NCBI GenBank assembly: GCA_020063075.1
Contig: JAGUVE010000030.1
Location: 1 to 26,190, forward strand
Source: Parcubacteria group bacterium
GTDB lineage: Bacteria > Patescibacteriota > Minisyncoccia > Minisyncoccales > JAGUVE01
Reading direction: 5' to 3'
DNA length: 26,190 nt
Shown here: positions 12,255 to 18,225 of the stretch, in pieces
How positions within the stretch are numbered: the stretch's first letter is position 1
Layout of the letters: every line of letters begins with the position of its first letter
Made by a program: the position numbers and the translations under genes
The notes under the pieces: generated by a model
Database searches by the model: none
Told to the model about the DNA's origin: nothing
The model's input: the letters and a program-made list of their open reading frames with translations, nothing else

Positions 12255-12279
12255 ATAAAAAATCGCCATTTTGGCGATT
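12253..12279 (-). terminator. Intrinsic terminator after the TA operon; left copy of the island-bounding direct repeat
   Basis: AATCGCCA-AAA-TGGCGATT hairpin followed by TTTTATTT on the minus strand. Confidence 0.75.
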
Positions 12280-14637: not shown

Positions 14638-14684
14638 TTATCCACAGTTGACTACTACTCTGCGTTCTAAAAATGTTCTATAAT
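14638..14684 (+). promoter_or_regulatory. Upstream region of lexA-MTase: perfect DnaA box, GTTC-N7-GTTC direct repeat and TATAAT
   Basis: TTATCCACA 14638-14646; TTGACT 14648-14653; GTTC 14664-14667 and 14675-14678; TATAAT 14679-14684 (too far from TTGACT for one canonical promoter). Confidence 0.45.
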
Positions 14685-14720
14685 ATAATTGTAGCATATA
14701 AAAGCGAACCGTCAATAATT

Positions 14721-16580
14721 ATGCTTACAAAAAGACAAAAACAGATTCTTGATTACATAAAGAAGTTTATAAAAGACAAGAACTACTCTCCTTCTTTTGA
14801 AGAAATAAGAAGGCATTTTAGATTCGTTTCAAAATCTACCGTTCATCACCACATAGAAACACTAAAAGAAAAGGGATGCCTTAACCGCGCACGGACTATA
14901 GAGTTGTCTAAAGATGAAAAATCTTCTGGCCTTGTGGAAATTACCCTGCTCGGCACCATTGCTGCCGGCCAACCAATTGAAGCGATAGAAAATCCAGAAA
15001 CGATAACTATTCCTTCTAGCGAATTGGGAAGGTATAACAATTATTATGCATTAAGGGTTGAGGGAAATAGCATGATTGATGATGGAATATATGATGGCGA
15101 CATTGTAGTTATAAAACAACAAAGCACTGCGGATAATGGTCAGACTGTCGTGGCTATTATCAATGACAATGAAGCAACACTTAAAAAAATATACCGAGAA
15201 AAAGACAGATTTAGGCTACAACCAGCAAATCCTACTCTTTTTCCAATTTATCCAAAAGAATTAGAAGTAAGAGGCGTGGTAGTAAAAATTATTAGAAATT
15301 TTGAAAAACAAATTGTAAGAGAAAAAATATCAGACCATAAATTACAAAGAAGAATTGATTATTCGTGGGATTTCAATGGTGCAAAAACAAAACCTTATAC
15401 ACATGGATTTCATACCTATCCGGCGATGTTTATTCCTCAAGTCGCAAGACGACTCCTTTTAACTTATAGCCAAAAGGGCGATACTATTTGCGATATATTC
15501 TGTGGTTCTGGAACCGCCTTAATTGAAAGCAGATTACTCGGCCGTAATTCTTATGGCATAGATCTTAATCCTTTGGCTACATTTCTGGCCAAAGCCAAGA
15601 CCATACCCATTGATCCAAAAATTCTTTCAAGAGAATATTTAAAACTTTTGGACAAAATCAAAAAAATTAAAAATAATGAAATAGAGAAGCCGCAATTTTA
15701 TAATATTAACTTCTGGTTTAAAGATAAAATTATTATTGAACTGGCAAAAATAAAAAAGGCAATTAGAGAAATTAGCAATAAAAATATCCAGAATTTCTTT
15801 TTAGTCGCTTTTAGCGAGACAGCGAGAAAGTCATCAAATACAAAAAGTGGGGAATATAAATTGGTAAGAATGAGAAAAGAAGAATTGGAAAAACATAATC
15901 CGAATGTTTTAGAAATCTTCAGAAAAAGGGTTGAAACGAACCTTAAAGGAATGGAAGAATATTATAAAGATGTTGATAAGAAAACATGGGCTAAGGTTAT
16001 CTACGGGGATTCATCCAAAGATAATAGCATAAAAGAGAATTCAATTGACTGCATAATAACTTCGCCGCCTTATGGAGATAGCAGAACAACTGTTGCTTAT
16101 GGTCAATTCTCTCGTCTTTCTGCCCAATGGATAGACATCTTTGATAATCCTGATGATGCCTCTGGCGTAGATAAAAAATTATTGGGTGGCAATGGCATAC
16201 CAACTATAAACCATTATTTGCCTTCAAACTACCTAAAAGAATCTTTGCAAAAAATACAAAAGAAAGATGAAAAAAGAGCAAAAGAGGTCTTAAGTTTTTA
16301 TATTGGATTGAATGATTGTCTCAAGAATGCCTACGAAATATTAAAACCAAATAAATACTTTTGTTTAGTAATAGGAAACCGCCTCGTAAAACAAGTAAGA
16401 ATCCCTACCGATTTTATAATTGCTGAATTAGCCGAAAAAATCGGGTTTGTTTGCGAAGATATTATGGTTCGTAATATTCCTGGCAAAAGAATGCCAATTA
16501 AAAACTCACCAACTAATATTGCCGGCGAATTGGAAGAAACGATGACTAAAGAAAGTATAGTGATATTAAGGAAAACCTAA
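14721..16580 (+). CDS. LexA repressor fused to an alpha-class N4-cytosine DNA methyltransferase (619 aa from ATG 14721)
   Basis: LTKRQKQILDYI/SPSFEEI/STVHHHI HTH; IAAGQP cleavage site; GNSM Ser and TLKK Lys; then HTYPAMFIPQ, DIFCGSGT (motif I), TSPPYGDSRTTVAYGQFSRLS (motif IV), KRMPIKNSPTN; one uninterrupted frame. Confidence 0.92.
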   Translation: MLTKRQKQILDYIKKFIKDKNYSPSFEEIRRHFRFVSKSTVHHHIETLKEKGCLNRARTIELSKDEKSSGLVEITLLGTIAAGQPIEAIENPETITIPSSELGRYNNYYALRVEGNSMIDDGIYDGDIVVIKQQSTADNGQTVVAIINDNEATLKKIYREKDRFRLQPANPTLFPIYPKELEVRGVVVKIIRNFEKQIVREKISDHKLQRRIDYSWDFNGAKTKPYTHGFHTYPAMFIPQVARRLLLTYSQKGDTICDIFCGSGTALIESRLLGRNSYGIDLNPLATFLAKAKTIPIDPKILSREYLKLLDKIKKIKNNEIEKPQFYNINFWFKDKIIIELAKIKKAIREISNKNIQNFFLVAFSETARKSSNTKSGEYKLVRMRKEELEKHNPNVLEIFRKRVETNLKGMEEYYKDVDKKTWAKVIYGDSSKDNSIKENSIDCIITSPPYGDSRTTVAYGQFSRLSAQWIDIFDNPDDASGVDKKLLGGNGIPTINHYLPSNYLKESLQKIQKKDEKRAKEVLSFYIGLNDCLKNAYEILKPNKYFCLVIGNRLVKQVRIPTDFIIAELAEKIGFVCEDIMVRNIPGKRMPIKNSPTNIAGELEETMTKESIVILRKT

Positions 16581-17333
16581 CGACAAAATCTCTCTAAATC
16601 TTTGGTAATCTTTGAAAATATTTTTATCTTCCCGTATTCCTTCACATCTTTATTGCAAACATATACTCCTTCTAATTCTTGCACTCTTTCTCTATTAGCT
16701 CCGCTTTCAAATGTCTCCCAAGCCGTAACTAACAACACTTTTATTTTAAGATAACGAGACCAGGTGATTGTCTGCATTATCCTTTCAGCTAAAGTTGTCT
16801 TGGCAGATATTATCGCCATTGGTTTATTCCCTTTATCGGTTCTGACCAAAATAATATCAATATCTGGCCTGTAATCACGCACCCCCTTTTTACCCACTTT
16901 TGTTTTAAGTTTTTGCTCTAATTCTCTTTTAATCTTTCCGCTTGTAATTGCTTCAAGCGGAATCTTTTTTTTGTAAAAAATAAGTGTTTAAAATTTTAGC
17001 AACCCACAGAGCAAAATTATTACCAGCCAATGGACGCATTGTATTGGCAATACTCCTGCCTATCACTCGCAATTCCAAAAGCATTCGAGGATCCCCAAGT
17101 ATTTTTTCCCATTTTGGCAATGTTTGTGGGCTTGCCCATTTTTTAACAGCTCTTGGGGTAATAATTTTAACGACATCTTCATCGGAATTTTTCAAAATTG
17201 TAGCTAAATCGTCTCCTATTTTTAGAGGATTATCTGATTTTTTCAAAGCAGAATCTATTTTATCATCAAAAAACTTTTTAATAACTTCTTTAAATTCACT
17301 TTCTTGATTTTTATTCCAATTAGTATGAAGCAT
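16577..17333 (-). pseudogene. Type II restriction endonuclease, BsaWI/CCGG-family-like, frameshifted at an A8 tract; 251 aa if one A is removed
   Basis: ORF 16953-17333 and ORF 16577-16897 join by deleting one A from 16965-16972, giving ...FLQKKIPLEAITSGKIKRELEQKLKTKVGKKGVRDYRPDIDII...SAKTTLAERIMQT..W; PD..D..K core; convergent with the MTase. Confidence 0.75.
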
Positions 17334-17356: not shown

Positions 17357-17384
17357 AATATATCAGTAAAATTTATTTTTGCAA
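17357..17384 (-). promoter_or_regulatory. sigma70-like promoter of the endonuclease gene
   Basis: TTGCAA (17384-17379), N16 ending in TGA, TATATT (17362-17357). Confidence 0.55.
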
Positions 17385-17464
17385 ACCCAGTAAGACAACT
17401 TTGACTCGCTACGCGACAATTTGTCCCGAAGAAGTCGGGACAAGGCAAAGTTGCTCTACTGGGT
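17385..17464. mobile_element. 80-bp REP/MITE-like branched palindrome with apparent 2-bp AA target duplication
   Basis: ACCCAGTA...TACTGGGT ends; CAACTTTG/CAAAGTTG stem; hairpins TCGC-TAC-GCGA and TTGTCCCGA-AGAAG-TCGGGACAA; removing it restores the 12246-12279 sequence. Confidence 0.65.
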
Positions 17465-17499
17465 AAATAAAAAAATCTCCATTTTGGCGATTTTTTATT
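17465..17499 (-). terminator. Terminator after the SAM-methyltransferase gene; right copy of the island-bounding direct repeat
   Basis: aaataaaaaaatctccattttggcgatt differs from 12253-12279 by one substitution and one extra A. Confidence 0.7.
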
Positions 17500-17508
17500 C
17501 CTTAATTA

Positions 17509-18225
17509 TTAACTTCTCCCCCTCCCCCTCCCCGTGTTTGATTTCCTTGCTTTAAATTGAATAAAACCCATAACTCTGCCATCGGGAGGAAAAAATATTC
17601 TTTTTCCGGTAACTACATCTTCTACTCTAAATCCAAATTCAGAGAATCTTTTTTCTAAATATTCCCTGGAAAAATAATGAAAAAATTTTCCATTCCTCAA
17701 AAAAGTATCTTTTTCTATTTCCTTGCCTTTACCGAAAGTTTTATCGCTATAATCTTTGTCGCTAACAGACAATGCAATTATATATATGGCGCCGTTCGGC
17801 TTTAAAACGCGGCGTATTTCTTTAATGGCCTTGACAAGATGGGCATCGGTAATAAAGTTTAAACTTAAATGAGAATAAACCGCATCAAAAAATTCGTCCC
17901 AAAAAACAAATGGTTCAGCGATATCCTGAACTTTTGCTTTCAAATTAGTTATCTTCTCTTTTTTAATCCGCTCATTTAACTCGTTGATGGCTGATTCCAG
18001 AAAATCGGTGGCGACAACGAAGTGTCCTTTTTTTGCAAAAAATATTTCATCTAATCCCGCCCCGCATCCGAGCGAAAGAATTTTTGACTCGGGTTTTAAA
18101 TCTTTTACTACCTCTTTTGCAAATTGGTGGACTTTAATCTGTTTGGCTTTTTTAGGGTCTTTTAAATCTTTTTGCCAGATGCGATGTTGATTCGACACAT
18201 AAATATTTTCATTTAATGAACGCAT
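17509..18225 (-). CDS. Class I SAM-dependent methyltransferase, substrate unknown
   Basis: ILSLGCGAG motif I, VVATDF, VQDI, FDAVYSHLSL, EIRRVLKPNG. Confidence 0.85.
   Translation of the reverse strand: MRSLNENIYVSNQHRIWQKDLKDPKKAKQIKVHQFAKEVVKDLKPESKILSLGCGAGLDEIFFAKKGHFVVATDFLESAINELNERIKKEKITNLKAKVQDIAEPFVFWDEFFDAVYSHLSLNFITDAHLVKAIKEIRRVLKPNGAIYIIALSVSDKDYSDKTFGKGKEIEKDTFLRNGKFFHYFSREYLEKRFSEFGFRVEDVVTGKRIFFPPDGRVMGFIQFKARKSNTGRGRGRS

Follow-up and report, generated by a model that had tools for sequence, protein, structure and literature searches.

Contig JAGUVE010000030.1, a 26,190-nucleotide stretch (the window) from an ultra-small groundwater bacterium of the Parcubacteria group whose 712-kb assembly is 87.5% complete, carries a gene, P0001, in which a LexA repressor is continued by a DNA methyltransferase. 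We propose, with a probability of roughly 0.6 for the explanation as a whole, that P0001 encodes the modification methyltransferase of a small mobile type II restriction–modification (R-M) cassette and that its LexA part is a portable head. Held as a dimer by its peptidase S24 domain, the protein would bind GTTCTAA-N4-GTTCTAT, on its own −10 box, through its winged helix, which would shut its own transcription and set the methyltransferase level. On RecA–single-stranded DNA filaments, formed upon damage or upon breaks made by the cell's own restriction enzyme, the S24 domain would cut between Ala82 and Gly83; with the head lost, the promoter would open and more methyltransferase would be made until the damage subsided, which would in effect be a type II form of restriction alleviation. 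The head (DnaA box, operator, promoter and winged helix-turn-helix, or wHTH) would come from the phylum's autoregulated lexA, and recombination at the conserved cleavage-site motif would exchange it among methyltransferase genes. We consider autorepression by the head highly probable, physiologically relevant self-cleavage likely, and the full loop in which damage boosts methylation close to an even bet; the RecA dependence and the physiological purpose are parts that we infer.

The open frame spans positions 14673–16580 (+) and passes from LexA into the methyltransferase without a stop. An earlier note on this DNA, made from its letters alone, had described a complete LexA in one frame running straight into a methyltransferase, and profile searches bear this out: P0001 scores 179.6 bits against the NCBIfam lexA equivalog TIGR00498 (cut-off 110.95; 182.8 bits in a six-frame search of the genome), and both LexA domain profiles, PF01726 and PF00717, match it (Table 1). 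The stop or misassembly that might have separated the two parts was not found, the same continuous protein being present on thousands of contigs. Homologues of P0001 all begin at the position of ATG 14721, with MLTKRQ, and in this numbering Ala82-Gly83, Ser117 and Lys155 lie where the note had placed them. The Ala-Gly pair, the Ser and the Lys are invariant at 28 of 28 aligned loci and in 43 of 43 clusters (clustered at 50% identity) that overall are ~27–43% identical to the first, and by these residues the LexA of P0001 is apparently self-cleaving. Its best fold matches among solved structures are 3k2z, 3jso, 1jhh and 8trg, the last of which is a RecA-bound form, and the lambda repressor structures 8gmu and 2hnf are also among them. 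Dimerisation is a property of the LexA family.

The note had also remarked that the wing of the wHTH looks a few residues short, and it is indeed four residues shorter than in the paralogues. The impaired DNA binding that the note feared from this is nevertheless unlikely, because locus L070 of genome G007 has the same wing length together with a ~89% identical wHTH and nearly the same operator, which makes the short wing a feature of a lineage rather than a lesion.

Upstream of the gene, the GTTC-N7-GTTC direct repeat reported by the note lies at 14664–14678 and touches the TATAAT at 14679–14684. The note's equation of this repeat with the alphaproteobacterial LexA box stands for the repeat itself and not for its type, which is that of Patescibacteria lexA and not specifically alphaproteobacterial. 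Direct-repeat-binding LexA proteins have been described both from Alphaproteobacteria, with GTTC-N7-GTTC, and from Patescibacteria (Sanchez-Osuna et al. 2017, Environ Microbiol 19:3465, as relayed in PMC7739468). The position and period of the operator are alike in 26 of 28 homologous loci, across methyltransferase classes, with the tandem consensus [G/T]TTC[T/G][A/G]T-N4-[G/T]TTC[T/G][A/G]T occupying the promoter spacer or overlapping the −10 box, and the fusion genes share their promoter layout with the phylum's stand-alone lexA genes. Four loci (L013, L019, L024 and L030) have, downstream of the −10 box and ahead of the start codon, a second operator copy, full and inverted, of which we read the half-operator GTTCGC in the window as a remnant. 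The pentamer GTCAA is conserved 6–20 nucleotides ahead of the ATG at most loci.

GTTC-N7-GTTC alone occurs 18 times in the genome. We therefore quote matches to an 18-nucleotide operator matrix, built from 26 sites mostly of other genomes, with the three sites of this genome included in its training. The three highest-ranking matches of the whole assembly are the promoters of its three fusion genes, at 24.1, 21.7 and 18.8 bits, the window's operator being the third; ranks 4–19 all lie within open reading frames (ORFs), and weaker intergenic matches appear from rank 20 onward. Because of this ranking, the matrix scan of the 87.5%-complete assembly reveals no SOS regulon beyond the fusion genes. 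A fourth high-scoring operator-like match, found with a regular expression at C96:195, falls within a C-protein gene, on the opposite strand, and was taken as chance. Outside this assembly, the recA promoters of genomes G191 and G209 have no lexA-type operator, and we claim no SOS regulon there; the region upstream of recA in G191 (L092) contains TTGCAAA-like repeats with an 11-nucleotide period, and that in G209 (L091) a long inverted repeat, both unlike a lexA operator.

Operators and recognition helices change together. P0001 has Lys38 and His43 in its recognition helix, at positions that we take to be base-contacting in E. coli LexA (structure 3jso). Across 28 loci compared, Lys at residue 38 accompanies G at the first base of the repeat (7/7) and Val, Ile or Phe accompanies T (20/21); at residue 43, Gln or Glu goes with CGG (9/9), Phe, Tyr or His with CTA (16/17), and Lys with C(A/G)C. 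All four combinations of the two residues are seen, and the rule is independent of the attached methyltransferase. It also holds within G191 and G209, in each of which a stand-alone LexA with Lys and Glu has the box GTT(T/C)GGT and a fused one with Val and Glu has TTTCGGT. On a tree made from the S24 part alone, which served as the test of independence (and in which L018 was mis-coded as Lys), the residue-38/43 and operator traits change 5–8 times.

The design is widespread, and LexA–methyltransferase fusions span at least four methyltransferase families. Among homologue candidates restricted to 340–1083 amino acids, which leaves out stand-alone LexA, 7,447 of 8,000 scored match P0001 at E ≤ 1e-5. 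The best 120 matches are at least 70% identical across their full length and have the same three Pfam domains, and the named sources of the best matches are Nealson-, Portnoy- and Jacksonbacteria and other Patescibacteria. Genome assemblies hold 17 full-length orthologues, none with an internal stop. Some orthologues, from the database proteins or the assemblies, come from bins that bear the names Lokiarchaeia, Methanosarcinales, Gammaproteobacteria, Omnitrophica or Brevinema; these are probably mis-binned Patescibacteria contigs or cases of transfer. When the LexA part alone was searched against 1.84 billion cluster representatives and the best 150 were considered, 43 were long (331–890 amino acids), and all 43 combine LexA_DNA_bind, S24 and a DNA methyltransferase, of the N6_N4 type in 29, Eco57I/N6_Mtase in 7, D12 (Dam) in 5 and C5 in 2.

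The host's own assembly has three LexA–methyltransferase genes, those of the window, of contig C57 (476 amino acids, a beta-class SPPY enzyme) and of contig C96 (495 amino acids, a DPDY enzyme), as well as a fourth, divergent LexA that is interrupted by a contig end. Across 41 genomes of the order (40 relatives and this one), RecA was detected in 39 and LexA in only 13. Most LexA matches with high scores are in frames of 451–667 amino acids, and every long frame checked, eight of eight from relatives and two others of this genome, is a methyltransferase fusion. Immediately after each of three stand-alone LexA/S24-type genes that were examined in the order comes an R-M gene, for a C5 methyltransferase, an N6_N4 methyltransferase and an HSDR_N nuclease-type protein, respectively. 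Phylum-wide, 230 of 301 sampled genomes have a LexA (the sample takes in the unpublished G192, on which no claim rests); there it is mostly stand-alone, and fusions are extra copies. The note had envisaged a survey of such fusions in Patescibacteria, and those surveyed share a conserved promoter operator and invariant Ala-Gly, Ser and Lys.

Two lines of evidence mark the head as a portable unit. A perfect DnaA box lies at most 140 nucleotides upstream of 20 of 33 lexA or lexA–methyltransferase genes, compared with 0.1% of random 140-nucleotide windows of this genome (both orientations counted), and a box with at most one mismatch upstream of 29 of 33, compared with 3.4%. The box accompanies both operator types and may face either way, and GTTATCCAC is found seven times in the genome, in three cases at a lexA promoter. 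The DnaA box is also present at the phylum's stand-alone lexA genes, so the whole promoter layout is inherited from host lexA. The second line is the mosaic structure of the genes. Among orthologues the wHTH is the most divergent part (39–57% identical, compared with 62–83% for S24 and 49–91% for the methyltransferase). The head of P0001 is nearest to that of L070, which comes from another family and is joined to an unrelated beta-class methyltransferase: DNA identity between the two is 80–97% from −110 to +248, counted from the ATG, then falls to ~60% and later to ~45%. The break, at ~14970, falls exactly at the conserved cleavage-site motif, and on the S24 tree the window and L070 are in different, strongly supported groups. 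On this sequence comparison, promoter, operator and wHTH have been exchanged as a unit, with the breakpoint at the cleavage site. We offer a more general idea tentatively, as one that we think has the odds against it: that in Patescibacteria a ~360-bp unit (DnaA box, operator, promoter and winged helix) recombining at the cleavage-site motif could arm any R-M methyltransferase with a private, damage-cleavable autorepressor and a two-residue specificity code, and that in lineages like this order, where the host's lexA is mostly not found but recA is kept, the RecA signal might chiefly govern the R-M balance, alleviating type II restriction, perhaps with DnaA as a further gate when replication initiates.

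The methyltransferase part matches PF01555 at 75.3 bits (cut-off 26.7) in two stretches of permuted order, profile positions 113–213 aligning with residues 194–284 and positions 1–110 with residues ~442–619, in agreement with the note's description of an SPPY-type enzyme with motif I ahead of motif IV. F260-G262-G264 and S448-Y451 are invariant in 52 sequences, and the presumed target-recognition region lies between motif I and SPPY, at residues ~300–440. In the predicted model most of the domain has a predicted local distance difference test score (pLDDT) of 88–97, and residues 194–224 form a flexible, low-confidence linker. Three orthologues carry the Joint Genome Institute (JGI) label "cytosine-N4-specific", and the best sequence matches in the PDB are cytosine-N4 enzymes, matched in motif I only. 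Searches of solved structures found no close DNA methyltransferase, the fold matches being Trm11-like or generic Rossmann enzymes, and specificity is not inferable from these sequence and fold searches. Unfused orthologues occur in Ignavibacterium (L031 and L034, 43% identity). The enzyme is probably an N4-methylcytosine (m4C) methyltransferase with a CCWGG- or CCSGG-like site, and the resemblance to M.MvaI that the note had pointed out gains indirect backing from the genomic neighbourhood: most orthologues adjoin an MvaI/BcnI-family endonuclease gene.

Fourteen of 17 orthologous methyltransferase genes converge with an MvaI/BcnI-family gene of 233–237 amino acids, mostly with a 4-nucleotide overlap; Pfam was run on two partners (that of L012 and the 238-amino-acid copy of L027), which match MvaI_BcnI at 1e-44 or better, and the others align with them. 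In the window, L011 and L027 a BsaWI-family gene occupies the same place with the same overlap; the convergent methyltransferase–nuclease layout, with either nuclease family, is found in 16 orthologous loci. The presumed target-recognition region of P0001 is ~70% similar to that of the MvaI-type loci and 72% similar to that of L011, and this near-equal similarity to both groups means that one specificity is probably served by two nuclease families. At L027 (4860–6355) a BsaWI-like and then an MvaI/BcnI-like gene stand in tandem after the LexA–methyltransferase gene, which looks like a nuclease replacement caught midway. Palindrome counts in the genome (observed/expected) are 0.82 for CCWGG, 0.98 for CCSGG, 0.92 for CCGG and 1.02 for WCCGGW; the target site is not inferable from avoidance because these ratios are too weak beside those of GATC (0.20), TCGA (0.40) and GGCC (0.53). 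The strong avoidance of the last three may reflect systems that recognise, or once recognised, these sequences.

The note had taken the convergent PD-(D/E)XK endonuclease for a single gene and the pair for an R-M system. Convergence and the 4-nucleotide overlap are as it described; the endonuclease, however, is split over two frames by a run of eight T (T8) where relatives have seven (T7), so this genome does not hold an intact R-M pair. When the frameshift is bridged by an X, the protein scores 38.7 bits against the BsaWI family (cut-off 26.2), and the intact orthologue at L011 has 251 amino acids, ~83% identity and T7. One base fewer is found at 16964/16965 in five of five spanning contigs from four groundwater runs; these are Logan contigs of relatives, 85–95% alike. 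The relatives are thus in frame, and the state of the source population is not readable from these contigs; among sequencing runs none holding this strain was found (best share of words 0.16). The T8 may be a real mutation, a state of phase variation or an assembly error. Because its partner is frameshifted, the methyltransferase of the window is now probably solitary.

No LexA operator was found ahead of the endonuclease genes, and the window's endonuclease promoter has neither such an operator nor a C-protein gene. Many MvaI/BcnI-type partners, and the C96 system, have an Xre-type C-protein gene of their own instead. On C96 (L006, 111–371) this gene precedes the candidate endonuclease gene, so the system comprises a C protein and a LexA-headed methyltransferase, likewise L013, L015, L019, L020, L022 and L024; truncated remnants of C genes are seen at L014, L016 and L029.

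Several points weigh against the cleavable autorepressor that we propose. The −35-like hexamer is 25 nucleotides from the −10 box, which is not a textbook promoter; the stand-alone LexA of L087 breaks the Lys–G rule; and the S24 tree yields only 3–4 well-supported independent pairs, all concordant, with p of 0.125–0.25, an underpowered comparison. We infer operator binding and cleavage from conservation, and a search of the 87.5%-complete assembly did not find recA. Finally, if the S24–methyltransferase fragment were degraded after cleavage, the outcome would be the opposite of the one proposed. Such degradation is the core of a kill-switch explanation, in which a split triggered by RecA filaments arising in phage replication or under heavy damage would deplete methyltransferase, leave phage DNA unmethylated and maybe restrict the cell itself, in the manner of abortive infection. 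The fragments of cleaved E. coli LexA are degraded by ClpXP and Lon, which would favour it. So would the escape of phage from restriction when methyltransferase is in excess (PMC12707154). Loss of the head, however, must derepress the promoter too and so oppose depletion, the flexible linker in the model suggests that the methyltransferase domain may be independent and stable, and the fusion frame is intact here despite the broken endonuclease; we regard a kill switch as quite improbable. Somewhat less improbable, though still unlikely, is that the LexA head is a mere dimerising autorepressor in place of a C protein, providing feedback, perhaps together with a factor at the DnaA box, while its cleavage plays no physiological part. 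Autoregulation alone accounts for the position of the operator, the Ecl18kI, SsoII and EcoRII fusions act without proteolysis (PMC12707154), and the failure to find recA would fit as well. A head of this kind should have lost Ala-Gly, Ser or Lys in some lineages, whereas these are retained in every cluster and at every locus compared (43/43 and 28/28).

The origin of the head in the phylum's own lexA, and the presence of LexA in 13 of 41 genomes of the order, mostly in fused form, could also mean that the cell uses the fused LexA as its general SOS repressor, with the methyltransferase as a passenger. The strongest operator matches of the assembly, however, are only at the three fusion genes, LexA is patchy in an order where RecA is near-universal (39/41), single genomes hold several fusions with different heads, and elsewhere in the phylum a stand-alone LexA exists alongside the fusions; we give this possibility very little credence. 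That the fusion is an artefact of assembly or gene calling, a stop having been lost between lexA and a methyltransferase gene, found no support, although in G001 and G007 lexA and a methyltransferase gene are neighbours yet separate. Thousands of independent contigs from many studies carry the same continuous protein and the 17 orthologues lack a stop, which refutes the artefact for practical purposes. The cleavable autorepressor remains the explanation that we prefer.

How type II systems spare their host after damage or during establishment is explained for few control schemes, and the known ones are C proteins, promoter methylation, antisense RNA and short helix-turn-helix–methyltransferase fusions. 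If our proposal is right, a self-cleaving LexA head would add a new scheme, coupling the RecA damage signal directly to self-protection, in a design that is common (thousands of proteins, at least four methyltransferase families) in unculturable bacteria. In M.Ecl18kI, M.SsoII and M.EcoRII an N-terminal DNA-binding region of the modification enzyme represses its own promoter (PMC12707154). P0001 resembles them in its DNA-binding head and predicted operator at its own promoter, which would tie expression to the amount of methyltransferase; it differs in that they are C5 enzymes with a short helix-turn-helix and no protease, whereas here there is a full LexA with S24. The LexA head is, moreover, found on N6_N4 (beta and permuted), N6_Mtase/Eco57I, D12 and C5 enzymes, unlike the C5-only SsoII type. 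In that type a shared intergenic region also controls the endonuclease, whereas here the genes converge and the endonuclease promoter lacks an operator. P0001 is like LexA in its domains, its catalytic residues, its fold and the tandem-repeat operator at its promoter, and unlike it in having a C-terminal DNA methyltransferase of 420 amino acids, no detectable regulon in this genome apart from the fusion genes and a patchy, mobile-element-like distribution.

Mobile elements use repressors of the same kind: in phage lambda CI and SetR of SXT, RecA-stimulated self-cleavage is the induction signal. Those are separate proteins set over lysis or transfer genes, whereas in the fusion the repressor is joined to the enzyme that it would regulate; to our knowledge none of the S24 repressors of the CI and SetR type is fused in this way. 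In the alleviation of type IA and IB restriction, ClpXP degrades HsdR after DNA damage (PMC12707154). The proposed shift from restriction to modification when repair creates unmodified sites would be alike, although type IA/IB alleviation removes the nuclease by proteolysis, whereas in the fusion self-cleavage of the repressor head would release the methyltransferase gene from repression. LexA is not mentioned in that 2025 R-M review (PMC12707154), and we found no published description of LexA–methyltransferase fusions, which the 2017 paper on Patescibacteria LexA (PubMed 28618189) may mention. The operator position, the two-residue code and the module boundary make the design testable in E. 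coli, and the helix–operator code could yield orthogonal, damage-inducible repressor–operator pairs.

Table 1. Features of the LexA–methyltransferase cassette, in positions of the window.
Feature	Position	Strand	Remarks
DnaA-box consensus TTATCCACA	14638..14646	+	directly upstream of TTGACT
−35-like hexamer TTGACT	14648-14653	+	just downstream of the DnaA-box consensus
Predicted LexA operator GTTCTAA-N4-GTTCTAT	14664..14681	+	overlaps the −10 hexamer
−10 hexamer TATAAT	14679-14684	+	directly abutted by the repeat
Antisense promoter-like site TTGACG-16-TACAAT	14688..14715	-	10/12 match
Degenerate inverted half-operator GTTCGC	14704-14709	-	within the antisense promoter-like site
LexA–methyltransferase fusion gene P0001	14721..16580	+	619 aa
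LexA winged-helix domain, residues 1-62	14721..14906	+	PF01726, residues 2-57, 59.4 bits
Peptidase S24 domain	14946..15284	+	PF00717, residues 76-188, 96.6 bits
Predicted self-cleavage site Ala82-Gly83	14964..14969	+	also the module recombination breakpoint
Ser117	15069-15071	+	predicted catalytic dyad of the S24 domain
Lys155	15183-15185	+	predicted catalytic dyad of the S24 domain
DNA methyltransferase domain, permuted N6_N4 order	15300..16577	+	PF01555
Motif I, D258-T265	15492-15515	+	in the second half of the profile, placed first
SPPY, S448-Y451	16062-16073	+	in the first half of the profile, ~190 residues past motif I
Stop overlap of methyltransferase and endonuclease genes	16577-16580		4 nt
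BsaWI-like (PD-(D/E)XK) endonuclease, 3′ part	16577..16963	-	PF18643, 38.1 bits, cut-off 26.2
BsaWI-like endonuclease, 5′ part, another frame	16965..17333	-	frameshift at T8
T8 run, frameshift site	16965-16972		one extra base
Promoter-like site ahead of the endonuclease gene	17357..17385	-	

The cassette lies in an island flanked by two terminator-like hairpins, 12257–12279 and 17470–17492, that are 96% identical; the island holds a decayed type I remnant and the LexA–methyltransferase cassette. A gene for a TehB-like class I S-adenosylmethionine (SAM) methyltransferase (17509–18225, −) stands between the cassette and ribosomal-protein genes, and no link between it and the R-M cassette was seen.

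The fourth LexA of the assembly, on C79 (L004, 1420–1920), is of a second type; its gene exits the contig and may be a fourth fusion. At C79, L075, L076 and L077 a palindromic operator, CCGACC-N4-GGTCGG, lies between −35 and −10, and promoters of this LexA type also carry a DnaA-like box. In G029 and G034 a LexA of the C79 type is joined to a beta-class methyltransferase. On C75 (L010, 520–1692, −) a gamma-type NPPY methyltransferase gene has its 5′ end beyond the contig and could be the missing half of the cut C79 gene. Contig C105 (L007, 962–2061) holds a decayed copy of the C57 system, whose methyltransferase, of 194 amino acids, is without LexA head and without motif IV and converges with an endonuclease-VII/His-Me-type gene, as is also found beside the C57 fusion.

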